A stretch of 35,243 nt of DNA from a virus. Numbering within the stretch: position 1 is the stretch's first letter; each line of letters starts with the position of its first letter. The DNA lies in IMG/VR virus record IMGVR_UViG_3300045988_131290, one strand, 5' to 3'. Shown in pieces: positions 1 to 35,243 of the stretch. The position numbers and the translations under genes were made by a program. The notes under the pieces were generated by a model. The model was not told where the DNA came from, ran no database searches, and saw only the letters and a list, made by a program, of their open reading frames with translations.

Positions 1-55
1 AAAAAATACGACATTTTGTCGCATCTGAGGTATATTTTAGATTAAATATCTTAAT
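1..55. repeat. Terminal overlap, identical to 35189..35243 (circular closure of the contig)
   Basis: The string aaaaaatacgacattttgtcgcatctgaggtatattttagattaaatatcttaat occurs at both ends of the window. Confidence 0.95.
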
Positions 56-163
56 TCGTCAAGTTTTTTTTTACATTATGTCGCATTTTGTCGGGCAAAA
101 TCACTATAAATTTACATCAAAAAGTACTATAATTATATTGTGAGTATGTCGACAAATGTTGCA
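9..163. promoter_or_regulatory. Three related candidate operator sites in the divergent switch region (9..23, 80..94, 146..163)
   Basis: The 10-mer CATTTTGTCG is exact at 12..21 and 84..93. The inverted variant CGACAAATGT lies at 150..159, inside the palindrome TGTCGACA (147..154). The sites flank the early promoter and lie upstream of the repressor gene. Confidence 0.45.
34..62 (-). promoter_or_regulatory. Candidate early leftward sigma-A promoter
   Basis: On the minus strand: -35 TTGACG (62..57), 17-nt spacer, -10 TAAAAT (39..34). It points across the circular junction into the early operon that starts at 35167/35212. Confidence 0.55.
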
Positions 164-248
164 ACTTTAACAGTTTTGTAACTTTTAATGTGTTTATGTG
201 ACACACTCAAATGGGGTATAATTGGAGTTATAAGGAGGGATTTAACCA

Positions 249-599
249 ATGAATGAAATCAAATTTGAAACACAGGGTGAACGCTTAAAATATATTCGTA
301 AACAACATAAAAAAACACAAAAACAGATGGGTGAGGCGTTGCATTTATCTAGGGATCATATTTCAAGGTTAGAACGAAATCAATGTAATCCTACCGCATC
401 AACGATAGATCTTTTTTGTAGATTGTTTGGGGTTAATAAAGAATGGATACTTACTGGAAATGGAAGAATGGATAGTGATCTAAGCACACTAGAAAACCAT
501 TACGAATTTAAAGAACTGGCGGATAAAATCATTAATTTACCGCAAGATAAATACGATAAGGTTATGACGCTTTTAAAAATATATTTAGAAGATGAATAA
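249..599 (+). CDS. XRE-family HTH transcriptional repressor (cI-like); no S24 peptidase domain
   Basis: HTH_3-like segment KKTQKQMGEALHLSRDHISRLERNQCNPTASTIDLFCRLFGVNKEW. RBS AGGAGG at 233..238 and TATAAT at 217..222. It is the only + strand gene and diverges from the early operon. Confidence 0.85.
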   Translation: MNEIKFETQGERLKYIRKQHKKTQKQMGEALHLSRDHISRLERNQCNPTASTIDLFCRLFGVNKEWILTGNGRMDSDLSTLENHYEFKELADKIINLPQDKYDKVMTLLKIYLEDE

Positions 600-602
600 A
601 AA

Positions 603-637
603 TAGTGATTGGGGTAATCTCCAATCACTATTTTGTT
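603..637 (+). terminator. Rho-independent terminator of the repressor gene
   Basis: Stem tagtgattgg (603..612) pairs with ccaatcacta (621..630), followed by ttttgtt. Confidence 0.75.
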
Positions 638-780
638 ATAGTAACTTTGTTAGAAATATCAACAAATAAATTCCACCTCTCCCCCCGCAGCAATTCCCCC
701 TATTTTTCGCACCCGTCAAAAACCTATACTGTTGTCAGACCTCTACACTCTCGACCACTCTCATTATTGGAAAATCAAAA

Positions 781-804
781 ATGCAACCCCTCTCGAGGTT
801 GCAT
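781..804. terminator. Hairpin with T-runs on both strands (possible bidirectional terminator)
   Basis: atgcaacc (781..788) pairs with ggttgcat (797..804). It is flanked by aaaa on the 5' side and tttta on the 3' side. Confidence 0.55.
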
Positions 805-816
805 TTTATACCTATA

Positions 817-850
817 CCCTCTCGATAGTGGATCACTTATCGAAAGAGGG
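817..850. terminator. Imperfect hairpin just downstream of the 853..1119 stop codon
   Basis: ccctctcgata pairs with tatcgaaagaggg (one bulge). On the + strand it is followed by gtttattgtcttttt. Confidence 0.4.
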
Positions 851-852
851 GT

Positions 853-1119
853 TTATTGTCTTTTTATACTTATTAAGATATAGTTTAATCCGTCTAATTT
901 AACCGTGGTGATATTGTTTTTTTCATCAATATCAGATGTAAAGCGAACAGATCCACGGTTTAAAACTAACTGCGAGTTGCAATTCTCAAATATTAAAAAA
1001 TCCCTATCGAATCTAAACGTACACTCACTCATAATCGTACTCCCATGATCATGGTGAAATGTAACATTGAATATTGTATCAGTTAACAAGTGATTTAATT
1101 TTCTAACATGGGCATTCAT
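853..1119 (-). CDS. Hypothetical protein (88 aa), last gene of the accessory cassette
   Basis: ORF with a strong RBS (AAGGAGGGG, 5 nt before the ATG). Its start overlaps the end of the upstream HNH gene. Confidence 0.65.
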   Translation of the reverse strand: MNAHVRKLNHLLTDTIFNVTFHHDHGSTIMSECTFRFDRDFLIFENCNSQLVLNRGSVRFTSDIDEKNNITTVKLDGLNYILISIKRQ

Positions 1120-1480
1120 GATTACCCCTCCTTAATTTATAATCTAAATTATCAATATTATTATCAAGTTTGTCATGGTTCTTATGGATAACCTTATAAT
1201 ATCTTTTATCCGCTACCCCTTTAAAACATTGGATAACTAAATCGTGTACGTAAAGATCTGCACGTTGTTTTCCTCTATATAAAGATACTCGTTTATATCC
1301 TTTAACTTCGTATTGAGATAATTCTCTAAATTTCGTAATCGTTGTTTTAGATCCGTCATATGTAGTATAAGTATATTTTCTTTTAGCACTTATAACTCGT
1401 CCAAATGTAGTAATAAAATAACCTTCCCAGTATGGAATCGGTGTCACTTGTTCTCCTGTTTGTAACATTCTAGTAATCAT
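1103..1480 (-). CDS. NUMOD4/HNH_3-type HNH endonuclease (homing-endonuclease-like)
   Basis: NUMOD4-like IPYWEGYFITTFGRVIS. HNH_3-like VHDLVIQCF ... VIHKNHDKLDNNIDNL. Confidence 0.75.
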   Translation of the reverse strand: MITRMLQTGEQVTPIPYWEGYFITTFGRVISAKRKYTYTTYDGSKTTITKFRELSQYEVKGYKRVSLYRGKQRADLYVHDLVIQCFKGVADKRYYKVIHKNHDKLDNNIDNLDYKLRRGNHECPC

Positions 1481-2063
1481 CTATCGTAAATCCTTTCTCA
1501 TTGTCATTTTCCGCTTTTCTTTGATTGTAAAGATATTCTTGCATTAATCCGTCAGCATCACCGCTTAAAATCTTTTCTCGAACGTAATTGTCATATATAT
1601 TATTATCTAGTATAAACTTAGTTCGTTTTGCAAATTGATGTCCTTCTTTTAGTGCTACTTTTTCACTTTCAACAATCAAGATCCCTATTCTATAAAGTAT
1701 ATCCTTATAGATCATGTCGTCAATTGGAGCTTGTTCATCTTTACATATCTTTAATATTTCCTGTATGTTCTTGTATTGCGTTTGGAACATATCAGAACGT
1801 TGAAAGTTATATTGATGCCTTGCCATGTTGTCTGTGGCAGCCTGTATTGCTTTTAAATTAAGATCCTCTTTAACTCTATGTCCCAGTACCTCATATTTGT
1901 AATCAGTTACGAATTTAAAGGGTTCGTAATCTGTTAGGTTTAATAATTCTTTGGATACTTTTATAAATAACTCTAGCAATGTAATTGCTAGATAGGAGCT
2001 AAATTTCAAAACCTTTAATATTAATCGTAAGATCTCCCAATATGTGTTTTGTGTATTATCCAT
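1470..2063 (-). CDS. Hypothetical protein (197 aa) with a hydrophobic N-terminal helix
   Basis: ORF with RBS AGGGGG. Its stop overlaps the HNH start. No motif recognised. Confidence 0.65.
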   Translation of the reverse strand: MDNTQNTYWEILRLILKVLKFSSYLAITLLELFIKVSKELLNLTDYEPFKFVTDYKYEVLGHRVKEDLNLKAIQAATDNMARHQYNFQRSDMFQTQYKNIQEILKICKDEQAPIDDMIYKDILYRIGILIVESEKVALKEGHQFAKRTKFILDNNIYDNYVREKILSGDADGLMQEYLYNQRKAENDNEKGFTIDDY

Positions 2064-2080
2064 AATTTAGCCCCCTAATC

Positions 2081-2281
2081 TTAATATAATCTAAATCTGA
2101 AAAATTCAATACAGATTACATTTATTAAACTGATGCTGAATTTAACAATTGTTGTAATTCCGAATATTGCAATTCCGATTACTAAAGTGATTAAGATCAA
2201 ACCGATTACAGTTCCAACCATACCTCTTTTTTTCTCCAGTTCCTCTAAGTTATTCATTACTGTCACTATTATATTTTCCAT
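2081..2281 (-). CDS. Small membrane protein (66 aa)
   Basis: Hydrophobic stretch MVGTVIGLILITLVIGIAIFGITTIV. First gene of the accessory cassette. Confidence 0.55.
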   Translation of the reverse strand: MENIIVTVMNNLEELEKKRGMVGTVIGLILITLVIGIAIFGITTIVKFSISLINVICIEFFRFRLY

Positions 2282-2319
2282 TTTCTAATATACCTCACTT
2301 GATTTATTTATTTGTTTGG

Positions 2320-2354
2320 TGTATATTAGATGTTACCAAGCAATCTAATATACA
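2320..2354. repeat. 12-bp perfect inverted repeat (candidate operator or RNA hairpin)
   Basis: tgtatattagat (2320..2331) and atctaatataca (2343..2354). A third related half-site tctaatatac lies at 2285..2294. Confidence 0.5.
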
Positions 2355-2367
2355 ACTATATTAGTAA

Positions 2368-2397
2368 AGGGCGATTTGACCACCAATCAGTCGCCCT
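2368..2397. terminator. Terminator hairpin downstream of parR
   Basis: agggcga (2368..2374) pairs with tcgccct (2391..2397). The T-run is strong on the + strand and weaker (ttt) on the minus strand. Confidence 0.55.
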
Positions 2398-2409
2398 TTT
2401 TCTTTTACC

Positions 2410-2772
2410 TTAATTTAATATATCGTCGTCTAAATCTATATCGTCATCTTCTTCTGACGTATGAATTATACTTTTATCATCATCTTCTGATTGTGATGCT
2501 GCTGGAGCTACTGTTTGTACTGCTTGTTGTGCAGTTAATGTCGATGCTAACATTCCATCAAGTGTATTTACCTTTTCAGTTAATATTGACTCTGCAAATA
2601 TTCTATTTAGTTGAGTTGGGGGAATAACTCCCTCAACTTCCAACATTATTTCGAAAGCCTTCTTTGCATTTTTAGACTTTCCATACTTACCGTCTTTATT
2701 GAGATATTCCCACATTAGCCTTTCAGTTTCATTTTCTGTATTAAAGTATAAACTTAATCTTTCGTTTGCCAT
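2410..2772 (-). CDS. parR: ParR-like centromere-binding adaptor (putative RHH N-terminus, acidic C-terminal tail)
   Basis: Lies immediately downstream of parM. The N-terminus ERLSLYF followed by a helix is RHH-like. The C-terminus is SEDDDKSIIHTSEEDDDIDLDDDILN. Confidence 0.6.
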   Translation of the reverse strand: MANERLSLYFNTENETERLMWEYLNKDGKYGKSKNAKKAFEIMLEVEGVIPPTQLNRIFAESILTEKVNTLDGMLASTLTAQQAVQTVAPAASQSEDDDKSIIHTSEEDDDIDLDDDILN

Positions 2773-2773
2773 A

Positions 2774-3673
2774 TTATAACCAACCTTTCGCCTTTGCTAT
2801 TCTTCTTTTACCTTTATTATTTGAGTGCATCGGATTTTCTAAGAACATATAATTTTTATTATATCCTTCAATCGCCCTTCTAAAGTCAATTGATCCTCCA
2901 CCTGTAAACACTATTAATTTACCTAATCCTAAATTGAATGAATTTTTCATCTTATTCATTAACTCTTTTATGAACTCGTCCTCAAGTTCTTCATAAACTG
3001 GAATAACTCCCGTTTGTATATAATGTCTTACCTCATGTGTTTCTACATTTTGACCATGCTCATTATTGAATTTTGCTTTAACCCTATTGTAAAAATCTAT
3101 CGTTCCCGCTGGGAAGGTATCTTTATTTACAATTCTTTTGTTTTTATACTCTACGACGTTTGTTGTGCGTCCTCCAATATCTATTATTATTACATCTTTT
3201 GCTCTTTCTTCTTTAGGCAGCATATAGTAACTCGAGATACCCTCTCCTACGATTACCACATCTTCAATGTGAATTGTTTTTTCTTCCGTAGTTTTGAAAG
3301 TGAATGATTTTCCGATAAGATCTCCTTTGATCTTGTCGCTTTGTCCTAGTGAATTTATAGGTAAACCTAATATTAATCGGACGTGTTCTCCGTCTTTCAC
3401 TCCCGACTTATCTAGTCCCCAAAGTAAGTTTGGCATATAGTCTTTTTGAGCTTTATTATATTCACCGTCAAAATCTTTTTCGTATTCCATACGAAAAGCC
3501 TTATCTTTATATTCTAGTACTGTTTTCTCGCTTGTGTCTGCTGCGTCGTATTCTTCGAACGTCGATATAAACTGGAAGTCCTCTCCGTCAACTTGTCCTT
3601 TTGTGTTGTAGTTTCCTAAATCTATTATTCTTGTTACTATATTGTTTAATTCTTGTATTAAATTTTTTGTCAT
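2774..3673 (-). CDS. parM: ParM/Alp-family actin-like plasmid segregation ATPase
   Basis: Actin-fold motifs: phosphate-1 IIDLGNYNTKG, phosphate-2 IIIDIGGRTTNV, adenosine VFTGGGS. Confidence 0.85.
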   Translation of the reverse strand: MTKNLIQELNNIVTRIIDLGNYNTKGQVDGEDFQFISTFEEYDAADTSEKTVLEYKDKAFRMEYEKDFDGEYNKAQKDYMPNLLWGLDKSGVKDGEHVRLILGLPINSLGQSDKIKGDLIGKSFTFKTTEEKTIHIEDVVIVGEGISSYYMLPKEERAKDVIIIDIGGRTTNVVEYKNKRIVNKDTFPAGTIDFYNRVKAKFNNEHGQNVETHEVRHYIQTGVIPVYEELEDEFIKELMNKMKNSFNLGLGKLIVFTGGGSIDFRRAIEGYNKNYMFLENPMHSNNKGKRRIAKAKGWL

Positions 3674-3724
3674 TGTATTAATCCTCTTTTCTTTTATTTT
3701 AATTTTACCTGTTTTAAATTTTTA

Positions 3725-4177
3725 TTATCTTTCGTGTTGACGTTCTTCTTCGTCACAAAGTGCTTTAGTCATTTCTTTACGTTCTTTCCAACTTGCATAT
3801 TTGAATTTAGTAGAGTTTTCTAATTCCTTTTTTTGTCTTGCAAACTCTTTAAGGTGATTTTCTCTAGCGTTTAAATCATATATGAACTCGTCGCAGTTCG
3901 TACATTTTTTCCAAAGTCCAATTTCATGGTCGTGTTCTAAATCTCCTTCACATCTTTTACAATCGCTTAAACAAACTTTTGTATATTCTCCACAGTTTGA
4001 ACATTTAGCAAATACTGGTTCGACTTCTTCTGCGTCAACTTCATTTGCCCACTCTGTTAAAGTTCCACCAGTTATTGAATCGGCAATTCCGAATCCAATA
4101 CTTAAAGTTAATGTTGCAGCCATGCAAACACCATATCCTATTGCTATTTTCTTTAGTATCTTTTTATTAATTTTCAT
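3725..4177 (-). CDS. Membrane-anchored Cys-rich (double zinc-ribbon-like) protein
   Basis: N-terminal TM segment IAIGYGVCMAATLTLSIGFGI, then CSNCGEYTKVCLSDCKRC and CTNCDEF. It lies 51 bp upstream of parM with no obvious intervening promoter. Confidence 0.65.
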   Translation of the reverse strand: MKINKKILKKIAIGYGVCMAATLTLSIGFGIADSITGGTLTEWANEVDAEEVEPVFAKCSNCGEYTKVCLSDCKRCEGDLEHDHEIGLWKKCTNCDEFIYDLNARENHLKEFARQKKELENSTKFKYASWKERKEMTKALCDEEERQHER

Positions 4178-4232
4178 TTTTGGTCAATCCTCTATTATAT
4201 TTAGTAGTCGTCTGTCACCCGACTACTCTTAT

Positions 4233-4261
4233 ATAGTAACATATCCTGTTTTTTGCGTCAA
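4233..4261 (-). promoter_or_regulatory. Candidate promoter of the Zn-ribbon/parM/parR operon
   Basis: On the minus strand: -35 TTGACG (4261..4256), 17-nt spacer, TGt-extended -10 TACTAT (4238..4233). Confidence 0.45.
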
Positions 4262-4265
4262 TACT

Positions 4266-4400
4266 TTTCAACGTTATTTTTATGTTTTTTTATGTATAAC
4301 AACGTTGAAATATTGATATTACTATGTTTTAATTCAATTTTTCTAGGATTTTATTTATTATTTTAACGTTTATTTTATGTTTTTTAATGTCTTTTTATGT
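4266..4400. repeat. Candidate parC/operator repeats
   Basis: 10-bp inverted repeat TTTCAACGTT (4266..4275) / AACGTTGAAA (4301..4310). TTTTATGT repeats at 4278, 4288, 4373, 4393, with the variant ttttaatgt at 4382. Spacing within each cluster is 9-11 bp. Each cluster is adjacent to an AACGTT (4270, 4301, 4365). Confidence 0.45.
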
Positions 4401-4416
4401 TTTATACCGTTAATCA

Positions 4417-5526
4417 CTATTTTGGAATTTCTAAACCATGTGCTTTTGCATATTCTGTTATGGCATATCTTGTTACTTGCGATAGGATAACGTCCATACC
4501 CTGTTCTATAGCTAGTTTATACGCATCTTTATACGCATCATACATAGTGTTTACTTCATTAACACAAACGTCCACCACGTCCTCTGTGGCATCTTCTAAT
4601 ACTTCACTTGGTAAATCATAGTCTGATATATCCATTTGCCCCTCTACGTTGCCATTAGGAGTATAATAAATATCTTCTAAAGTAACATCATCATTTATCA
4701 TTGACTCGTCAAAAGCTCCAGCAGTAACTTCTACTGGATTTATTGAATGTCCGTTCTCGTCAAGTCCAGCAGCAGCATATTCTTCTTTTAACTTTTTAGT
4801 TAATACTTTAGTTTGAATCTTGTTTCTATATGTATCGGCATCTTTATTATATTGATCTAATGTTGTTATACCTTTTTCTTTAAGTGCTGCAAATGTAGCT
4901 TTTAAGTACGCATATTTCTTTTTAACGTCGTCAGATCCAGCAGCAGCGAACACTTCTCCAAATACTCCAAGATCAAAGTCGTTAACGTAAGATAATATTA
5001 GATCTTTTGTTTGGGGCATTACTCTTTTTTCTATGTGGCTATTTTTATAAAGATCAAGTAACGCAGTTTCCTTTTGATTATATGTATTTGATTTATGTTT
5101 TGGGGCAGCAGCACACGATTTAAGATCTTTCAGCGGTACTGGTAAAAAATTACCTTGTTCGTCTTGTATGAAGTCTTGTATTCCGTTTCTCTCGCTTACT
5201 GGTATTGGTTTCGCATATACGAAATATTTATACCCGCACATTCTCCCTTTAATATCTCTTAATCTTATTCTTGATATATAACCGAATTGTTCCAGCTCTT
5301 TAAGTCCCCTCGCTATTGAGTCCCTACCGTCTTTTAAAGATGATACTAAAGACTTAACATATATTTTATGTTTACTTGAATTTCTGTACTGTACGATCTT
5401 GCAATAGATCCCTATTGCCTTAGCTGATATATTTGTTTCATTCAAAATTGAATTATCTAATGTAGTATAATTACTTTCGTATGTCGAATATTCAAATGAA
5501 GTTTGGTTATAAAAATTATTATTCAT
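4417..5526 (-). CDS. Replication initiator / replisome organiser with a DnaD-like domain
   Basis: N-terminal winged-helix-like segment SIARGLKELEQFGYISRIR. DnaD/DnaB_2-like segment LILSYVNDFDLGVFGEVFAAAGSDDVKKKYAYLKATFAALKEKG. RBS GAGGAG. Confidence 0.7.
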   Translation of the reverse strand: MNNNFYNQTSFEYSTYESNYTTLDNSILNETNISAKAIGIYCKIVQYRNSSKHKIYVKSLVSSLKDGRDSIARGLKELEQFGYISRIRLRDIKGRMCGYKYFVYAKPIPVSERNGIQDFIQDEQGNFLPVPLKDLKSCAAAPKHKSNTYNQKETALLDLYKNSHIEKRVMPQTKDLILSYVNDFDLGVFGEVFAAAGSDDVKKKYAYLKATFAALKEKGITTLDQYNKDADTYRNKIQTKVLTKKLKEEYAAAGLDENGHSINPVEVTAGAFDESMINDDVTLEDIYYTPNGNVEGQMDISDYDLPSEVLEDATEDVVDVCVNEVNTMYDAYKDAYKLAIEQGMDVILSQVTRYAITEYAKAHGLEIPK

Positions 5527-5594
5527 AGTGCAATATCTCCTCTTTTATATTTCATATATTTTAAATTGTTTTAATCTCGAATCATTCTATGTAC

Positions 5595-5622
5595 TTGCAT
5601 TTATTTTTAAATGTGATATAAT
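5595..5622 (+). promoter_or_regulatory. Strong + strand promoter inside the rep leader
   Basis: -35 TTGCAT (5595..5600), 16-nt spacer, extended -10 TGaTATAAT (5614..5622). Confidence 0.6.
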
Positions 5623-5685
5623 TAAAGTACATTGTTTAAAAAAAAATCTTGTATTAAAATGTAGTGACTCCTTCACTACATTCTA

Positions 5686-5729
5686 ATGATAACACATATA
5701 ACGTTGAAGTCAATATCTCTAACGTTATA
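5686..5729 (-). promoter_or_regulatory. Candidate rep promoter embedded in an AACGTT inverted repeat
   Basis: On the minus strand: -35 TTGACT (5713..5708), 16-nt spacer, TGt-extended -10 TATCAT (5691..5686). The inverted repeat TATAACGTT (5697..5705) / AACGTTATA (5721..5729) brackets the -35. Confidence 0.5.
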
Positions 5730-5746
5730 AAAATTGTTTTAATCTT

Positions 5747-5775
5747 AAACCCGTTCTTAATTGAGCGGGTTTTTT
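5747..5775 (+). terminator. Plus-strand rho-independent terminator
   Basis: aaacccgttc (5747..5756) pairs with gagcgggttt (5763..5772) with one G-U pair, followed by a T-run to 5775. There is no T-run on the minus strand. Confidence 0.65.
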
Positions 5776-5798
5776 GTTGCAATTACTCACTTTTTGAA

Positions 5799-5834
5799 TA
5801 AAAAAGTCCCCCCACAAAATTATTCGTGGGGGGA
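5799..5834 (-). terminator. Strong rho-independent terminator after the 5858..6157 gene
   Basis: Minus strand: tccccccac, loop, gtgggggga, then cttttttatt. Confidence 0.8.
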
Positions 5835-5857
5835 TAAATTTTAATGAGGTTACAAAA

Positions 5858-6157
5858 TTATTTATCTATAGTTTCAAGTTCTTCAATGGCTTTTAACAGT
5901 ACTTCAAATATAGAACTTGGATTGTTGACATTATCTTTATTATCTTTTTTTACATCTTGGATCTCATCATGTATGCGTTGTATTTTTATAGCTTTTCTAA
6001 CATGGCTAAATACATTATCGAAATTATCCCCTGTTTCGTCGGCTACCGCTTGACATATCTTTGATGTTAGTATTGCTAATTCCTCTAATACATCACCGCA
6101 CCCACCGTTTAATTGTATTTCGCATGAACCTTTTTTTTCGATATATGCTTTGATCAT
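5858..6157 (-). CDS. Hypothetical protein (about 100 aa) in a self-contained transcription unit
   Basis: Preferred start is MIKAYIEKK at 6157 with a GGAG RBS. The candidate promoter at 6210..6238 lies inside the longer ORF-track version (to 6253). Confidence 0.6.
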   Translation of the reverse strand: MIKAYIEKKGSCEIQLNGGCGDVLEELAILTSKICQAVADETGDNFDNVFSHVRKAIKIQRIHDEIQDVKKDNKDNVNNPSSIFEVLLKAIEELETIDK

Positions 6158-6209
6158 CTTTTCAATCTCCTTAATTAAAAAATATGTGGTTTGCCTTTCG
6201 ACATTTAAG

Positions 6210-6238
6210 ATAATATCATAGAGACAAATAAAGTGCAA
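6210..6238 (-). promoter_or_regulatory. Candidate promoter for the 5858..6157 gene
   Basis: On the minus strand: -35 TTGCAC (6238..6233), 17-nt spacer, TGa-extended -10 TATTAT (6215..6210). Confidence 0.5.
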
Positions 6239-6465
6239 TACTTTTTTAGACATTTTATCTAATTTATTTAAGATTAAATATCTAGTATTAATTGAATCAA
6301 TAACCTTTTCTAAATGTGAGTAAAAAAGATCTACTTTGTATCAAATAAAATAATATCCCTTTGATAATCTAGTTATATATCGTATCCCTAAAATCATAAA
6401 AAATAGAAAAAAAGAAATTTATTGTTTTCGAAAAAATGAAGTGTCGCTCGGTACGAGCTTACAAC

Positions 6466-6549
6466 AACCGATATTTTAATTTTATAGTATTTTATTTTTA
6501 TTATATTTTATTTTTATGTCGTGGATAAACCGATATAGACATATCGGTT
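6466..6549. repeat. Origin-like element: three AACCGATAT boxes flanking a ~45-bp almost pure A/T tract
   Basis: AACCGATAT at 6466..6474 and 6528..6536, and inverted as ATATCGGTT at 6541..6549. TATTTTATTTTTA is directly repeated at 6488..6500 and 6504..6516. Confidence 0.45.
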
Positions 6550-6635
6550 ATAGGTATATCCGACAACGGTCAGTTCGAGTAATTCCAACGTGTGTACCGA
6601 AACGGAAAGTTCTTCGAGAATCCTTGTTTTTCGAA

Positions 6636-6666
6636 AATAAAAAATAGGGAGATCCGAAAATCTCCC
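6636..6666 (-). terminator. Rho-independent terminator of the lysis cassette / late operon
   Basis: gggagat (6647..6653) pairs with atctccc (6660..6666). On the minus strand a T-run follows (ctattttttatttt). Confidence 0.8.
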
Positions 6667-6676
6667 ATGTGTTTTA

Positions 6677-6964
6677 TCACTTATTTTTATTTAATTTTGT
6701 CGATATTGTTGCCGCATCACCTAAATTATTTGATTTTAAAGCAGACCATAATTCCTCACCATAAAAACCGACACCACTCGAAATTATGGCAGTAGTGAAT
6801 CCCTCAACAGAGGGATCAATCAGTAAACCGATTATTGTCCCAACCAATATACATATTATAGCCTGTAAAGACTCTTGCAGCGGTGGTTGGTATTTAGATA
6901 CTATCAATTTTACGATCATAACTATTACAACGACTTCAAATAAACTTTTAACTGATATATCCAT
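6677..6964 (-). CDS. Holin (small two-TM protein with a charged C-terminus)
   Basis: TM segments FEVVVIVMIVKLIV and AIICILVGTIIGLLI, with a basic tail KLNKNK. Its start overlaps the endolysin stop (TAATG). Confidence 0.75.
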   Translation of the reverse strand: MDISVKSLFEVVVIVMIVKLIVSKYQPPLQESLQAIICILVGTIIGLLIDPSVEGFTTAIISSGVGFYGEELWSALKSNNLGDAATISTKLNKNK

Positions 6965-7686
6965 TATTTAACCAACCTTTCTACATACTTAGATCCAAGA
7001 CTTATCCAGCCTAAACCACTTTTTAATTTACCCCAGTTATTTTTGATCTCAACGATTGTATATGCGTCACCCTTCTTTAATTCGCCAACTTTATCATAAG
7101 AAGTTCCAGCACCTTTTCTCACGTTTAGACTATCACATATTATTTTAACAACGAAAGGTGTTAGATCTTCTGATTTAAATTTACTTATTCTATTTTTAAA
7201 TTTAGTTAAATTACCGTCACGATCAATGATCACTTGCGGACAATATTTACCCGTATAATCTTTGTGCATTTTAACCTTGCTAATATCTTTTATATTTAAT
7301 AAATTCATTAATTCAAGTACTAATGCGATTGCATTGTCCTCTGCTTGTTTTTGTTTAACCTCGTCTTTGAACATACATATTTCAATACCAACTGCTTTCG
7401 AATTGTAGTTTCCGATATGCCATGCTTTTTTATGAGTATCAACAAGTTGGTAGATTTCTTTATCATCAACTACGAAATGATAACTTGCTTGCCAACTTGG
7501 ATTTTCTTTGTTAAATCTCTTTAATGCAGTCGCATAATTCGCAGCTGGGACGTTCCAATCTCCTGTATTATGAATTGCTATTTCTGTTGGTGTTATTGAT
7601 TGATTTGGTATACAATAACCTTTTGGTAGTATGTCAACTATAACCTTTGCTTTGTGTAATGTTGTATTATTTTTTAATGTAGCCAT
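6964..7686 (-). CDS. Endolysin: N-acetylmuramoyl-L-alanine amidase (Amidase_2/PGRP) with a C-terminal SH3b domain
   Basis: IAIHNTGDW ... SYHFVVDD ... AWHIGN ... GIEICM ... HKDYTGKYCPQ. C-terminal LNVRKGAGTSYDKVGELKKGDAYTIVEIKNNWGKL. Confidence 0.85.
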   Translation of the reverse strand: MATLKNNTTLHKAKVIVDILPKGYCIPNQSITPTEIAIHNTGDWNVPAANYATALKRFNKENPSWQASYHFVVDDKEIYQLVDTHKKAWHIGNYNSKAVGIEICMFKDEVKQKQAEDNAIALVLELMNLLNIKDISKVKMHKDYTGKYCPQVIIDRDGNLTKFKNRISKFKSEDLTPFVVKIICDSLNVRKGAGTSYDKVGELKKGDAYTIVEIKNNWGKLKSGLGWISLGSKYVERLVK

Positions 7687-7701
7687 ATTAATATTTCCCT
7701 T

Positions 7702-9885
7702 CTAATTTTCCAATACACTTGGATATAATTCTGTTTTTGATGTTTCTTTCACTTTGTAGTATCTTGTTGCGATACCTTTATTCGTTGGAACATAATGCAA
7801 TACAATATTAAATGCTTGTATATATACTGCATTAGTTGTCGTACAAAAAGCCCTAATTGAAAACGTAACATCTTCTGTTCTTGATGCCGAAGTTCCGTTA
7901 TAACAAGTCGGGAACCCCATGATCGTCGCTGCAACTGGGATTATATAATCTTGCCCACCTTTCAGCGACATTACTATTTCACCTCTTGATTGATCTTGTA
8001 CTGAACTTTGATTTTGTCCCGTTGAATACTGTTGGTATAGTGTCGGCTGTAAATGTAGTGTTGAATCTGCTTTACACTTAACTTTGATCCAGCCATTAGC
8101 AGTAACCGTATATTGAGAATCTAAACTTTGTGTGATCTTAGATGCAGCCATTGTCGAATATGTTTTATTCGTAGATGAATTTAATAATCTCCACCCGTCC
8201 GAACTATAACGATTACTATCTTCTGTTGACTTTGAACTGTCAGCATAGAAATAATGATGTGTTGTAAATGGTTCAACTAATTTAGTACGTTTATCTCTCG
8301 AATTTTTAACCATAACTAAAATTGTGTTAACGAAATATTCAACGTAACGAGTCATTAAGAAATTGTTACGTTTACCTCCATATGCCGAGTTATTCCATTC
8401 GGGATTTAGTGCTTGTGTACCTATTACATATGATGCCCAACACGACATACTCGGTAGATTACTAGATGCAAATATAACTCTTTCATCTTCTCCATTATCG
8501 GGATCTAATGTTGATAACATTTCGGATAGTTGAGTTATGCAGTTATCCCTAAATCTTGGATAATATACAACCTTTTCTGCTTGAATTGTAGTCAAAGTGT
8601 GCCAATCTATTGACCCACAAAAAGTTTTGACTTCGGAAAGATCTTGTATTAAATCACGCATGATTTGACTTTCTTTTTCAGAAAATGGTGCAGTACCTTT
8701 ATAATTCGTCTGTCCTTCAGAGGCATTTGTTGAGTACTCATTCCATAAATACTCAAAGTTTCTATTAAGATCCACGCCCCTTGAATTTTGACGTTTTGAA
8801 TTTACGAATCCCCAAGGGTTACATATTGGAACGATTACAAGTTTAACTTGTTGTTTTAAGTACAGCAAGTTTGGATCGCTCACATTGTCAGCACATAGCA
8901 ACTCTAAAAACCTACATAGTCCATAGAATGATGTATACTCGTTCCCATGTAAGCAGCAAGTGATTAGTAATGTCTTATCATAACTATCGGGCGTAAGTTC
9001 ATATTTGTAAATATCATATGTATTCGATTGATCTTTACCTAATGAAGTACGTTTTATGTACGTTGGATTAGCCGCTCTAATCGGTTCTAAGATCCAATTT
9101 AAACTGTCATTATAATTATGATCACTTGGCACACCGTTCGAATCTAACTCTGTCCCAAGAATTGTTGGTGGAGTGTACCAATCGGGTAATCGAGAAATTC
9201 CCCCCTTATTTATAATGGTAGTTCCTCCGCCGCTGCCTCCTGTTCCACTTTCTAAAGATGCGACTCTATTAGTTAAATCGCTGATCTTTTCAACTAGGGC
9301 CGCATTTTCAGCATTTAAGTTATTAGTTACTTGTTTAATATTTGTGATTTCTGTTGTGACAGTTTGAATATCGCCTCGTAACTGTTCATTATCAATCTTT
9401 AATTGTCCCGTAGAGCTTTCTAAATCAGTTAGTCGTTTTTGTGCATCTGCTAATCCTCCGACTGTGTTTATAATATCCTGTAATGCTCCAAACTCATTAC
9501 TTGATTGGATTGCGTCGTCGTCCCTAAGAGATTTGACGACCTCAAAATCTAAAATAAACGTAGATATTTCTTGATCATCTAGTGAAATTCCTAATTCAAC
9601 TTTTATTATCCCTTCAATTGCTCTACTGTTAGTCGTAAAGTCCAACAAGGCATACTCATTATCTATGATCGGACACGTTATATATGATACTGTGTCGTCG
9701 GGTTTCTTAATAAAAGCCCTACATGAAATACCCGTCAGATCTAATAGTTGCCCGTTATATGAAAATTTAATTTTTCTTCGTCTTGTATTTATATCTTTTT
9801 CTTTTAATTTCCCACCGAATATATGCTGATCATTTGAAAGATCTAACACTATTACCTCGGGTTCGAATTTATCTACTAACTTCAT
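7702..9885 (-). CDS. Tail fibre / receptor-binding protein: BppU-like N-domain, coiled coil, Gly-rich linker, M14 zinc-carboxypeptidase-like domain, beta-rich C-terminus
   Basis: Preferred start is MKLVDKF at 9885 (RBS GGAGGA, 6 nt upstream). M14 motifs: CCLHGNEYTS (HxxE), NPWGF, RGVDLNRNF, SIDWHT. Confidence 0.75.
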   Translation of the reverse strand: MKLVDKFEPEVIVLDLSNDQHIFGGKLKEKDINTRRRKIKFSYNGQLLDLTGISCRAFIKKPDDTVSYITCPIIDNEYALLDFTTNSRAIEGIIKVELGISLDDQEISTFILDFEVVKSLRDDDAIQSSNEFGALQDIINTVGGLADAQKRLTDLESSTGQLKIDNEQLRGDIQTVTTEITNIKQVTNNLNAENAALVEKISDLTNRVASLESGTGGSGGGTTIINKGGISRLPDWYTPPTILGTELDSNGVPSDHNYNDSLNWILEPIRAANPTYIKRTSLGKDQSNTYDIYKYELTPDSYDKTLLITCCLHGNEYTSFYGLCRFLELLCADNVSDPNLLYLKQQVKLVIVPICNPWGFVNSKRQNSRGVDLNRNFEYLWNEYSTNASEGQTNYKGTAPFSEKESQIMRDLIQDLSEVKTFCGSIDWHTLTTIQAEKVVYYPRFRDNCITQLSEMLSTLDPDNGEDERVIFASSNLPSMSCWASYVIGTQALNPEWNNSAYGGKRNNFLMTRYVEYFVNTILVMVKNSRDKRTKLVEPFTTHHYFYADSSKSTEDSNRYSSDGWRLLNSSTNKTYSTMAASKITQSLDSQYTVTANGWIKVKCKADSTLHLQPTLYQQYSTGQNQSSVQDQSRGEIVMSLKGGQDYIIPVAATIMGFPTCYNGTSASRTEDVTFSIRAFCTTTNAVYIQAFNIVLHYVPTNKGIATRYYKVKETSKTELYPSVLEN

Positions 9886-24869: not shown

Positions 24870-24984
24870 ACTCTCACCCCCTTAATATTTATCTCAAAAA
24901 GTTCAAACGAGCATTTTTTTTAAAGAAACTGCGGCTGGGTTCTTCTGTGAAAACGAAAAATTTTTTTGAAAAGACGGGGGGTAT

Positions 24985-25095
24985 AAAAAATTTACATAAA
25001 AAATTTACATAAAAATAAATTTTACATAAAATAAATTTACATAAAAAGATTTTATATAAAAATAAATTTACATAAAAATAAATTTATATAAAATC
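24985..25095. repeat. Array of 7 TTTACATAAA / TTTATATAAA repeats between the HNH gene and terS
   Basis: Copies start at 24991, 25004, 25021, 25036, 25051 (variant), 25067 and 25083 (variant). Spacing is 13-17 bp. Confidence 0.85.
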
Positions 25096-25479
25096 TTCTA
25101 ACCATAACCTCTGATACTCTTTTAACTCTGCTTTGACTTCATCATTATAATCGGAATGTATTATTTCATGTACTTCAAATGTCAAAGGAATTAAATTATC
25201 TGTATCAAAGAAGTTCTCCCTATTTGCTAGATCAATATGATGTATGATCTTCGCTGGTCTAACCTTGCGATATTTATACCAAGAATAAACACACATATAA
25301 TTATACTTCTTTAATATACTGTCCCTAACTCTACACCAACGAGTTGTTTTGTATAACCTTTCGTGATTGTTCAATGATCTTGTATATCTATCTTTGTTGC
25401 GTTTCTTTTCGCAACTATTACATCTTACTTGATCCTGTGTGATTATACTCCCACACATAGAACACGTCTTCAATAACAT
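25084..25479 (-). CDS. HNH endonuclease associated with cos-type packaging
   Basis: CSMCGS...CNSC zinc knuckle. HNH core IIHHIDLANRENFFDTDNLIPLTFEVHEIIH. Lies next to terS/terL. Confidence 0.85.
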   Translation of the reverse strand: MLLKTCSMCGSIITQDQVRCNSCEKKRNKDRYTRSLNNHERLYKTTRWCRVRDSILKKYNYMCVYSWYKYRKVRPAKIIHHIDLANRENFFDTDNLIPLTFEVHEIIHSDYNDEVKAELKEYQRLWLEDFI

Positions 25480-26076: not shown

Positions 26077-26372
26077 GCTACACTTTGTAACACCTTTCTG
26101 CTACACTTCAAACCGTTGGTATTACTGGGCTAGAGCCGATTTTCACTGCTACACTTTATATCTAATTCCTTTATATATAAAAAAATAAAAATTAATTAAA
26201 ATATTAGAAGTATAAAGAGAAAGTGTAGCAAAGTGTAGCACCACCCTTGAACCATTGATATTACTACGTTGTAGCCGCTACACTTCTAATTTTCAAAGTG
26301 TAGCAGAAGTGTAGCACTTGATGAAAAAACCGCTGCTGCTGTTGCTATTACTTGGTTGTAGCCGCTACACTT
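26077..26372. repeat. Iteron array: 9 copies of GCTACACTT in both orientations around an A/T-rich core (candidate replication origin)
   Basis: Forward copies at 26077, 26100, 26148, 26277 and 26364. Reverse copies (AAGTGTAGC) at 26221, 26231, 26296 and 26307. The A/T-rich core is 26158..26220. A longer composite motif tattact..g.t.tagcc occurs 3 times. Confidence 0.8.
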
Positions 26373-28218
26373 TTTTAATAAATACTCTAGTGTTCTTTCC
26401 GTCGATCCTTAATACCTTGACGTCGTAACCTTGCTTTTTGATGTTGCGGGTAAATACTGTTCTTCCAAGTGGTTTTAAATTACCTTCTGAACACCAAACG
26501 ACATATCTTTTGTATAGTTCCGTTGACGGTTCGTTCTCGATCTTGAAATCTTCCATGAACTCAATGATCGGATTATTCTCTTTCTCGTATTCTTTTAATT
26601 CCGCTTTTACTTCGTCTACTGTTTCGAAGTCGTTGCGTTTTAGCACTCTTTTTAATCCTTCAAGTCCTAAATTAAGTAAATGTTGCAAACTCTCCGTCAT
26701 AAGCAACTTATCTTTGATAAATGGATCAAAGTCTGCATCACTTGACTTGAATTGTGCATTAAATGGTATTATGACCAATCTTCGCATTAATCCGTTGCTG
26801 GTGTCGTTTATTCTTGGAACTTCATTTGCTGAAAAGATTAGCTTAGATGTATTTTTGAAGTCGAAAGGATCCGCCCCTTTACGTTCAACGTTCACCGACT
26901 CACCTGTTACCAGTTTCTTAAAGATCGAGTTATCGTCAATATATGCACTTGAAATATCGTCCCCTATATTAACCATTTTCCCGTATAATTCAGCGGTCTT
27001 AAATCGCACTCCAAGTTCATTCATTCCTAAAGATGAAATATTGTCCTCCCCAATTAGGGCTTTTAGAACATCAAGGATCGTACTCTTACCGTTTGACCCA
27101 ACACCTGTTAGTATGAATGATTTCCCTAGCTCATTACGACGTAGTAAACAATAACCGATCATTTCCTCGATTATGCGTCGCAGCTTGGAATTATTACAGG
27201 CAATCTTGTCAAGTGTACGATCTAGTACTTCTGATCTTGCTGCTGGATTATATGAAACTGCTATTTTATTCTTAGAAATATAGTTCGGTGAAAAGTCCTC
27301 TAATTCCAATGTCTTTAGATTTAAAAGTCCGTTTTTACAAACCACATAATCAGTACTTGATAGATTTTCATTTTTAGCGATTAATTCAAGGTATGAAATG
27401 ACTTCGGCCCTCCTAGATTTCGTTAATGTTGGAATGTGCTTAATTAATGATCTCTCTATATCCGAATATTTGTCCGAATATACACCGTCAACATAAATAT
27501 GCAGCTTATTATTGATCTTGATTATGTGTTCCTCATTCTTTATAAACTCGGCAAATTTATCGTGCATAAATTGACCCTTCTCATTGTAGAATGACGGTTT
27601 ATTAAATGCGTCGTCCCTCAATATTGTATCAATTTCTAATTTAGATAGAGGATCTTTTAATATGTAATCATTGATCAATCGTATACATTCTCTAATTTCA
27701 TCTTTTACAAATCCATGACCTTGCAACTTTAGTATATATGTAAAGAACGTCTGATTTCGCCCTTCGCCTTCTTCCATATTAAAGAAATCGGGAAGTCGTT
27801 TAACTACGGTTAAAAACTTAGGTAATGGATCTACTTCGTCATTTATTATTAACTCTCGTTCCACCCCTTCCAGTTTTAAAGGTACAACTGCGTTTTTCGT
27901 TCCTATCTTAATATCTACTGTTATTCCAACAGCAGTAGTGACCGCTATTGCATTTCCTTGAACATTTGTATTTAGAAAATAGAAGTGCATACCCCTTTTA
28001 GTCTTTAAAGAATGATACTTTATTTCCAAGTCGTCCAAGATCTGCTTTAATATTATCGACTGTACCCTGTCGTCAACGTCTACCATTATGTAATTGTCGT
28101 CTAAAACCCCACCATACTCGTGGAGGTCCTTCACCTCGTCCAATGTGTAAAATTTTGACCTTCCTTTTATCGACTCTGTTGGTCTTTTGCCTTTCGTTGG
28201 TATGTACCCTTTAAACAT
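26365..28218 (-). CDS. Bifunctional primase-helicase (prim-pol N-domain, D5_N, P4-family SF3 helicase C-domain)
   Basis: Walker A LTGVGSNGKSTILDVL. RRLVIIPF motif. 617 aa. Confidence 0.85.
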   Translation of the reverse strand: MFKGYIPTKGKRPTESIKGRSKFYTLDEVKDLHEYGGVLDDNYIMVDVDDRVQSIILKQILDDLEIKYHSLKTKRGMHFYFLNTNVQGNAIAVTTAVGITVDIKIGTKNAVVPLKLEGVERELIINDEVDPLPKFLTVVKRLPDFFNMEEGEGRNQTFFTYILKLQGHGFVKDEIRECIRLINDYILKDPLSKLEIDTILRDDAFNKPSFYNEKGQFMHDKFAEFIKNEEHIIKINNKLHIYVDGVYSDKYSDIERSLIKHIPTLTKSRRAEVISYLELIAKNENLSSTDYVVCKNGLLNLKTLELEDFSPNYISKNKIAVSYNPAARSEVLDRTLDKIACNNSKLRRIIEEMIGYCLLRRNELGKSFILTGVGSNGKSTILDVLKALIGEDNISSLGMNELGVRFKTAELYGKMVNIGDDISSAYIDDNSIFKKLVTGESVNVERKGADPFDFKNTSKLIFSANEVPRINDTSNGLMRRLVIIPFNAQFKSSDADFDPFIKDKLLMTESLQHLLNLGLEGLKRVLKRNDFETVDEVKAELKEYEKENNPIIEFMEDFKIENEPSTELYKRYVVWCSEGNLKPLGRTVFTRNIKKQGYDVKVLRIDGKNTRVFIKKV

Positions 28219-35188: not shown

Positions 35189-35243
35189 AAAAAATACGAC
35201 ATTTTGTCGCATCTGAGGTATATTTTAGATTAAATATCTTAAT
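35189..35243. repeat. Second copy of the 55-bp terminal overlap
   Basis: Exact identity to 1..55. Confidence 0.95.

Follow-up and report, generated by a model that had tools for sequence, protein, structure and literature searches.

Phage-plasmids occur frequently in Clostridia and in the gut (PMC7969092, PMC10210947, PMC11652158, bioRxiv 10.1101/2025.02.07.636470). The element analyzed here corresponds to the IMG/VR virus record IMGVR_UViG_3300045988_131290, a stretch of 35,243 nucleotides (nt) that is called the window, at its full length, throughout this work. An earlier note on it had proposed that this phage is kept as a plasmid by a ParM/ParR partition system and a DnaD-type Rep, and our results supported this interpretation: the ParM was confirmed, no recombinase was detected, the assembly was circular, and close relatives were found without any contig longer than 50 kb. 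Most likely, the element persists as a low-copy plasmid inside its host.

The episomal prophage phiSM101 of Clostridium perfringens SM101 (NC_008265) is likewise circular, of siphovirus type and around 38 kb in size. It shares with the window a cI-type repressor, after which come a plasmid replication gene, a parM whose product was 37% identical, and, downstream of it, an 80-amino acid (aa) open reading frame (ORF) homologous to the gene designated here as ORF120; in both elements the cassette is placed between the lysogeny switch and the lysis genes. In contrast, the replication protein of phiSM101 is a pCW3-type 'plasmid replication protein', encoded divergently from parM, whereas that of the window is of a winged helix-turn-helix (wHTH)-DnaD type. 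In addition, parC of phiSM101 lies directly upstream of parM with AAGTAAC-type repeats and no genes in between, and its phage backbone and lytic replication module are different.

The same ParM family includes the proteins of the pCW3/pCP13-like plasmids of C. perfringens (38% identity to the window ParM) and the Cbc-ParM and CBg-ParM of C. botulinum (PDB 7x54 and 7x3h). Clostridial type II par loci also resemble the window in having a small protein with the same N-terminal signature in the ParR position, and a repeat array at the promoter. However, ParR has 80-94 aa in those loci vs. 120 aa here, with a long acidic tail ending in DDDILN, and the window differs from them in its AACGTT repeats, in the one or two genes found between the promoter/parC and parM, and in the presence of the motif also at the rep promoter. 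Phage P1 uses RepA/oriR, the ParABS system (type I, with a Walker ATPase) and Cre/lox dimer resolution. The window element resembles P1 in combining a plasmid initiator and partition for the prophage with a distinct lytic replication system (PMC7969092), and differs from it in its DnaD-type Rep, its actin-type ParMRC, the lack of any recombinase found, and a size of one third of that of P1. The longer ParR, the extra genes between parC and parM, AACGTT at two promoters and the candidate countertranscript are distinctive here, as variations that introduce no new principle; concepts are unchanged because plasmid prophages with type II partition were already known from phiSM101 and from the phage/plasmid ParMs of C. 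botulinum.

Positions 1..55 of the window were identical to 35189-35243, and this 55-nt terminal overlap indicated a circular assembly with a unit length of 35,188 bp. Pfam and PHROG searches gave the complete gene set of a temperate phage (virion, packaging, lysis, and repressor), bearing out the siphovirus virion, lysis genes, cI-like helix-turn-helix (HTH) protein and primase-helicase noted previously; the holin candidate (6677-6964), a small ORF with a transmembrane (TM)-like sequence, was named from its position and membrane-type sequence. The window is best explained as the complete genome, assembled as a circle of 35.2 kb, of a temperate siphovirus that infects a clostridial host in the gut. 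Nearly all genes of the window are carried on the minus strand. From the late-operon terminator (6647-6666) toward cI, the order is ORF131 with its own terminator, rep, a 240-nt intergenic region, ORF150, parM, ORF120, a terminator, and four small ORFs. The ORFs of the plasmid-style block were recovered where the earlier note had placed them, on the minus strand. This maintenance module occupies the usual place of an integrase, between the lysis genes and the repressor.

The partition operon and its promoter repeats

The parM gene (2774..3673, minus strand) encodes an actin-like segregation ATPase of 299 aa, as recognized by Pfam, PHROG, PDB and motif analyses. Both Pfam domains, ALP_N (9.7e-7) and MreB-like_C (2.2e-6), exceeded their curated cut-offs, PHROG 691 'partition protein' was matched at 2.6e-38, and the solved structure of Cbc-ParM from C. 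botulinum (7x54) aligned with residues 15-292 (E = 2.2e-32); CBg-ParM also aligned. The motifs D18-L-G-N, E144-G, D165-x-G-G-R-T, and T257-G-G-G were invariant in the family alignment (19 sequences). With actin-fold and ParM models and a solved clostridial ParM all matched, and with every nucleotide-binding motif invariant, the proposed actin-like ATPase held in full, and sequence comparison confirmed the product of 2774-3673 as a true ParM of the ParMRC type II family.

ORF120 (2410..2772, minus strand), the parR candidate, starts 1 nt past the parM stop codon and would encode an adaptor of 120 aa. Its product starts with a conserved, presumably DNA-binding region (ERLSLYF...MWEY...KSKN), which a variable linker joins to an acidic C-terminal tail whose last peptide ends in EEDDDIDLDDDILN; 13 of the 26 final residues are aspartic or glutamic acid. 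The conserved N-terminal 45 residues aligned with those of the small ORFs that follow parM in clostridial loci (hhalign 98.4%, E = 9e-15), the homologues compared being the ParR-position ORFs of phiSM101, one C. perfringens plasmid and four metagenomic lineages. ORF120 alone had no match in Pfam, PHROG, NCBIfam, or PDB, and the family profile of the ParR N-terminus retrieved only noise from PDB and Pfam. In the AlphaFold2 (AF2) model of the monomer, the predicted local distance difference test (pLDDT) score was 53 and no strand was seen; the sequence pattern of the N-terminus, in which two helices come after a short hydrophobic strand, is no more than compatible with a ribbon-helix-helix. Thus, of what had been claimed for ParR, position and acidic tail stood, whereas the ribbon-helix-helix fold came out weaker than described. 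The identification of ORF120 as a predicted ParR adaptor is supported by its position and homology.

The ratio of nonsynonymous to synonymous substitution rates (dN/dS) was 0.06-0.08 for ParM, equal to that of the phage helicase and indicative of purifying selection, 0.22 for Rep, and 0.18-0.23 for ORF120. A reading of the block as a decaying plasmid remnant was ruled out by these values, as ParM, Rep and ParR were all under purifying selection.

The first gene of the par operon, ORF150 (3725..4177, minus strand), codes for a protein with an N-terminal TM helix and CxxC zinc-ribbon motifs that had no match in Pfam, PHROG, NCBIfam, or PADLOC. It was retained in relatives (dN/dS 0.12 vs. the relative L004), which often insert an ORF of 231-246 aa before it (L003, 8760-9868; L018, 11324-12463). 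It could be an accessory gene expressed in lysogeny, acting for example in superinfection exclusion.

A promoter scan placed a strong par operon promoter at 4233..4261 on the minus strand (TTGACG-17-TACTAT, with an upstream TG), and its hexamers were kept in relatives. At the start of the par transcript, a hairpin or inverted repeat with an 8-bp stem (AGTAGTCG-N9-CGACTACT; 4203..4227, minus strand) was recognized by its conservation, being invariant over three lineages except for a single, G-U-compatible change. The operon ends in a terminator hairpin after parR (2366..2399, minus strand; inverted repeat AAAGGGCGA/TCGCCCTTT). Upstream of the promoter lies the parC candidate (4266..4411, minus strand), made up of repeat cluster B (4270-4306), which abuts the -35 hexamer, and cluster A (4365-4411). 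Each cluster is bracketed by AACGTT/AACGGT copies, 31 and 41 bp apart, and contains two to three ACATAAAAA units in a 10-bp phase. This architecture was kept, with invariant AACGTT positions, in the relatives L003, L006 and L018-20; relatives that preserved it had a ParM 85-89% and a Rep about 70% identical, and the arrays were conserved in three lineages.

Over ten par loci, the type of repeat followed the N-terminus of ParR: ERLSLYF went with AACGTTA, KRLSLDL with AAATAAC or TAACTTA, and ERINLRL with AAGTAAC; a locus with an unrelated ParR had none of these repeats. In L009 and L010, which have the same type of ParR and a very different Rep, AACGTT bracketed the parM promoter only and was not found upstream of Rep. 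We assigned 4266-4411 as the candidate parC centromere because the array was conserved, the repeat co-varied with the type of ParR, and L009 and L010 displayed this pattern. AACGTT was not enriched in the whole window (15 copies found vs. 15.5 expected); five of the 15 copies fell within 173 nt of promoter DNA (binomial 8e-9, calculated post hoc). AACGTT was also considered as a Rep iteron and rated less likely, since L009 and L010 pair it with the same ParR type and an unrelated Rep.

Rep and the proposed control of its expression

The rep gene (4417..5526, minus strand) encodes an initiator of 369 aa with a winged helix (residues ~30-105), a predicted DnaD-type helical region (~150-230), and a small C-terminal helical domain (~325-369). 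These three modules were confidently folded in the AF2 model, with pLDDT values of 70-84 in residues 30-105. HTH_36 was detected at 1.3e-6 (28.5 bits vs. a cut-off of 25) and PHROG 186 'DnaD-like helicase loader' at 5.4e-19. The DnaD model PF07261 had no match on the window Rep itself at E <= 0.01, whereas it was found in 24 of 44 full-length Rep relatives (best 3e-19), which matched through the central domain. Searches against PDB by sequence or profile recognized the wHTH, with the family profile matching MarR/Lrs14 wHTH structures, and nothing further. When the Rep model was compared with PDB by Foldseek (~260 columns), the top matches were Geobacillus DnaB (5wtn) and a DnaD model (E ~0.02-0.1), and wHTH-only regulators were interleaved with them. 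Structure matches among viral proteins were annotated as 'DnaD-like replication protein', 'replisome organizer', and 'RepA-like initiator', and plasmid relatives carry the annotation 'DnaD domain protein'. The superfamily is very large, comprising 24,062 proteins at E <= 1e-3 in an exhaustive profile search. Of the DnaD-domain Rep announced by the earlier note, the wHTH initiator was recovered, whereas the DnaD domain was reached through the relatives and PHROG 186, less directly than had been stated; the designation DnaD-type Rep is therefore supported indirectly.

RepA_N/DnaD-like initiators of Firmicutes (e.g., that of pSK41) join a wHTH to a DnaD-like domain, have a type II par locus beside rep, and are controlled by a countertranscript. 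In comparison with this group, the window Rep gave no match to RepA_N (PF06970) and no PDB sequence match, and it differs from these initiators by its additional C-terminal domain. Three imperfect 30-nt direct repeats were observed inside rep (4706-4735, 4757-4786, and 4928-4957), each encoding an AAG-x-D-E motif. They could be iterons, as in some Firmicute plasmids with the origin inside rep, or merely repeats at the protein level.

The rep promoter (TTGACT-16-TATCAT with a TG; 5686..5726, minus strand) has AACGTT on both sides of its -35 hexamer (5700-5705 and 5721-5726), and the par and rep promoters show an identical AACGTT geometry around the -35 (TAACGTT-N7-ATTGAC). Facing the rep leader, a candidate countertranscript was located on the plus strand (5595..5775), with a promoter at 5595-5622 (TTGCAT-16-TGaTATAAT, the extended -10 TGaTATAAT being at 5614-5622), a start around 5629, and a terminator at 5747-5775. 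The predicted antisense RNA, of ~147 nt, covers ~50 nt at the 5' end of the rep mRNA and has a minimum free energy of -38.9 kcal/mol (z = -6.8). Its promoter, terminator and hairpin, the latter with one compensatory pair change, were kept in relatives, and the candidate RNA was conserved in three lineages. A search of Rfam with 2200-6800 returned sub-threshold, terminator-like matches only, and no family for the antisense RNA. Countertranscript control of rep is a hallmark of plasmids. From this arrangement we infer a plasmid-type control of rep copy number by the candidate antisense RNA, whose expression would start from the promoter just described. It seems doubtful, yet conceivable from the AACGTT geometry, that ParR doubles as a regulator of rep, so that copy number and segregation would be coupled in a layer added to the antisense RNA, and that the membrane-anchored ORF150 protein is possibly a new functional partner of ParMRC rather than the product of a passenger gene.

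Proposed plasmid maintenance, lytic replication and alternative explanations

We consider it quite probable that the element is a phage-plasmid of P1-like logic built from Gram-positive parts, namely a copy-controlled wHTH-DnaD Rep, ParMRC segregation, and a separate lytic replicon. According to this proposal, the prophage would persist as a low-copy plasmid without integration, and the maintenance module would form two transcription units of its own, rep and ORF150-parM-parR. Rep would presumably bind an origin and recruit the helicase-loading and priming machinery of the host, while its AACGTT-flanked promoter would face the ~147-nt countertranscript that sets copy number. ParR would bind the parC repeats, which contain AACGTT and are in helical phase, at the promoter of the operon, where the operon would be autoregulated; its acidic C-terminal tail would capture the ends of ParM filaments, and ATP-driven polymerization of ParM would push sister copies apart. 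Lytic growth would depend on the early module (D5-type primase-helicase, DNA polymerase, SSB, Erf, and ThyX) and on an origin of its own at 26.1-26.4 kb.

The candidate lytic origin (26077..26370) contains nine GCTACAC iterons that surround an AT-rich tract and occur in either orientation. All nine copies of this heptamer in the window lie inside this region (vs. 1.3 expected in the window), which adjoins the D5-type primase-helicase gene (26365-28218) and is likely the lytic origin. The notion of two replicons gained independent support because this second origin-like region sits apart from rep, beside the primase-helicase. The relatives bear on the same question, as they combine homologous Rep-ParM-ParR cassettes with unrelated lytic replication modules. 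Distant ParMs (37-57% identical) had an equivalent location in unrelated elements of 33-39 kb that resemble sipho- and myoviruses, where they follow a Rep of wHTH-DnaD, HTH_36/DnaD_N or Rep_3 type and, before it, one or two HTH repressors; the lytic modules of these elements vary, and some have a Phage_rep_org_N/DnaB_2 and DnaC-like pair of their own. Both the separate iteron/AT-rich region and the joining of cassettes to differing lytic modules spoke for the two replicons suggested by the earlier note. The polymerase called polB there is a DNA polymerase; its assignment to the polB family had weak support (NCBIfam Pol II, E = 0.004; a faint PF00136 match in a 62%-identical homologue).

The same data bear on a single replicon, in which the wHTH-DnaD Rep would be a replisome organizer serving both lysogeny and lytic growth and only ParMR would be plasmid-specific. 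Proteins joining wHTH and DnaD-type domains are typical phage replisome organizers, the matches in PHROG 186 and BFVD include 'DnaD-like replication protein' and 'Replisome organizer', and no iteron array specific to Rep was confidently located. Against this, rep is separated by 20 kb from the operon for early replication and forms a unit with a promoter and terminator of its own, past the late-operon terminator and under candidate plasmid-style antisense control; the primase-helicase has an adjacent iteron/AT-rich region of its own; and L010-L012 hold a cassette Rep plus a separate Phage_rep_org_N/DnaB_2 and DnaC-like pair in the early operon. On balance, a single replicon appears unlikely.

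No recombinase, resolvase, or transposase was detected by Pfam in any ORF of at least 99 aa, including the largest antisense ORF (26438-27154, plus strand), and six-frame tblastn with the tyrosine recombinase, resolvase, and TnpB of relatives gave a best E of 0.2; the absence of an integrase reported previously was borne out by both searches. Close relatives were present in ~300 metagenome sample blocks without any contig longer than 50 kb. A ParM 85% identical to that of the window (P0003) occurred in 257 sample blocks, with the longest contig between 20 and 50 kb in 105 of them and above 50 kb in none; a 70%-identical Rep (P0153) occurred in 39 blocks, again with no contig above 50 kb, and all of these contigs kept the gene order of the window. 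One member of the ParM cluster of the window was seen on 98 contigs, the longest of 39.6 kb.

In a related lineage (L009-L012 and L021-L022), elements with the same repressor-Rep-ParM-ParR cassette also encoded an Xer-like tyrosine recombinase and a serine resolvase, together with an FtsK/SpoIIIE-like protein, and their contigs reached 53-69 kb. These functions may serve for dimer resolution or for alternation between integrated and plasmid states.

Integration by the XerCD recombinase of the host is known from CTX-like elements. An integrating prophage that would use such a host enzyme or an unrecognized recombinase (e.g., ORF197 or ORF261), with ParMR and Rep acting transiently or only after induction, could draw on the several window ORFs without family assignment and on the related lineage with the same cassette and an Xer-like recombinase. 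However, neither Pfam nor six-frame tblastn gave a recombinase signal, none of the contigs of close relatives exceeded 50 kb or had host flanks, and selection on ParM was as strong as on core phage genes, which makes this explanation very improbable.

Phage cytoskeletal proteins with lytic roles exist in large phages. That such a role applies here, the actin-like protein positioning or organizing phage DNA during lytic infection with no stable plasmid lysogeny, is hardly credible even with the plasmid state questioned for some Bacillus phages that have partition genes (BigBertha; PMC7969092), since the par operon is located outside the early and late operons and beside a cI-type repressor, contains a ParR homologue and a centromere-like array, and shares 37-38% identity with partition loci from genuine C. 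perfringens plasmids and from phiSM101, an episomal phage.

Several points weigh against a plasmid prophage with two replicons. No origin for Rep was located, and AACGTT could in principle mark Rep sites in this lineage rather than ParR sites. Virion or replicative DNA would give a circular metagenomic contig just as readily, and assemblers often break at prophage borders, so that the absence of long contigs is strong but indirect evidence; no isolate or host assembly was found in the scans of species-representative genomes. Most low-copy plasmids carry a multimer-resolution recombinase, and none was found in the element; an Xer system of the host would have to serve for dimer resolution. Lastly, since the more distant lineage with the same cassette has a tyrosine recombinase and contigs of 53-69 kb, some relatives may integrate or alternate between states.

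Relatives, host and neighbouring genes

A megablast search of positions 1-8000 against phage and plasmid collections produced no match, so no close annotated DNA relative was available. A large protein collection contained many relatives, and the ParM cluster of the window in it includes GenBank DAY54800.1, described as 'MAG TPA: hypothetical protein, Caudoviricetes sp.'. Neither IMG/VR nor the species-representative genomes gave a match when scanned with ParM as a single protein, and alignment-based scans retrieved distant relatives or uninformative contigs only. The named relatives belong to Romboutsia and also to Clostridium, and the nearest cultured phage backbones are those of C. botulinum and C. 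tetani phages, with a large terminase subunit (TerL) about 51% identical. These relationships point to a host among gut Clostridia, placed no finer than Clostridia/Romboutsia.

The results supply a well-supported annotation for a phage family that is apparently widespread in human-gut Clostridia; close relatives of its ParM were present in several hundred metagenome sample blocks, and their GenBank entries read no more than 'hypothetical protein, Caudoviricetes sp.'. Because no integrase is present, such phages are prone to misclassification by standard lifestyle predictors. A movable repressor-Rep-ParM-ParR cassette occupies the place of the integrase in several unrelated clostridial sipho- and myovirus backbones, and it could be useful for the detection of phage-plasmids, for shuttle vectors, and for stable replicons in poorly tractable gut Clostridia.

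In the remainder of the window, the early operon (35.0 to 26.4 kb, minus strand) comprises genes for an SNF2 helicase, VRR-NUC, Erf, a DUF669 single-stranded DNA-binding protein (SSB), the DNA polymerase, DUF3310, ThyX, and the D5-type primase-helicase. It is followed by a sigma-like regulator, ahead of the small and large terminase genes (TerS/TerL). The virion and packaging genes recognized by Pfam and PHROG include, besides TerS/TerL, those for the portal, a ClpP-type protease, capsid, connectors, tail, tape measure, and Dit/Tal proteins; a BppU/carboxypeptidase tail protein and an amidase endolysin come next, identified in the same way. Directly upstream of the small terminase gene, six tandem repeats of 15-16 nt (AAATAAATTTACATAA-like) were observed at 24983-25107; they may represent either part of a late promoter or the site (cos/pac) recognized by the terminase.

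The cI-like HTH repressor (249..599, plus strand; 116 aa; HTH_19/HTH_3 and PHROG 8/3/4) has no peptidase domain and is divergent from the early operon. An ORF of 92 aa next to it (605-883, plus strand) was considered as a lysogeny gene and rejected, as it crosses two terminator hairpins (599-634 and 778-807); in this region, transcription of cI and that of the leftward operon converge and stop. An exact 16-nt motif (TTWAGATTAAATATCT) appeared at the early promoter (36-51) and just upstream of ORF131 (6268-6283), suggesting that regulation of ORF131 is common with the lysogeny switch. A second, operator-like motif (ACATTWTGTCGCAT) flanks the early promoter at 11-24 and 73-86. Neither motif was present at the rep or par promoters.

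Among the four small ORFs downstream of ORF120, a gene similar to NUMOD4 and HNH_3 homing endonucleases (1103-1480, minus strand), in the accessory region close to the lysogeny genes, was kept in relatives. Between the parR terminator and ORF66, the stretch 2284-2364 contains a perfect 12-nt inverted repeat (2320-2331/2343-2354) together with extra copies of TCTAATATAC and TATATTAG, and is likely the operator of the downstream ORF66-ORF197-HNH-ORF88 unit. No convincing family was found in PADLOC or Pfam for ORF150, ORF131, ORF197, ORF66, ORF88, or the ORFs inserted in relatives. In close relatives, the slot of ORF131 contains a gene of PAPS-reductase fold coding for 281-307 aa (L003-L008, 6286-7131; L018-L020, 8769-9769), with weak similarity to defence proteins of BrxP/SspD/DndC type, which marks the place between the lysis genes and rep as a variable accessory position.

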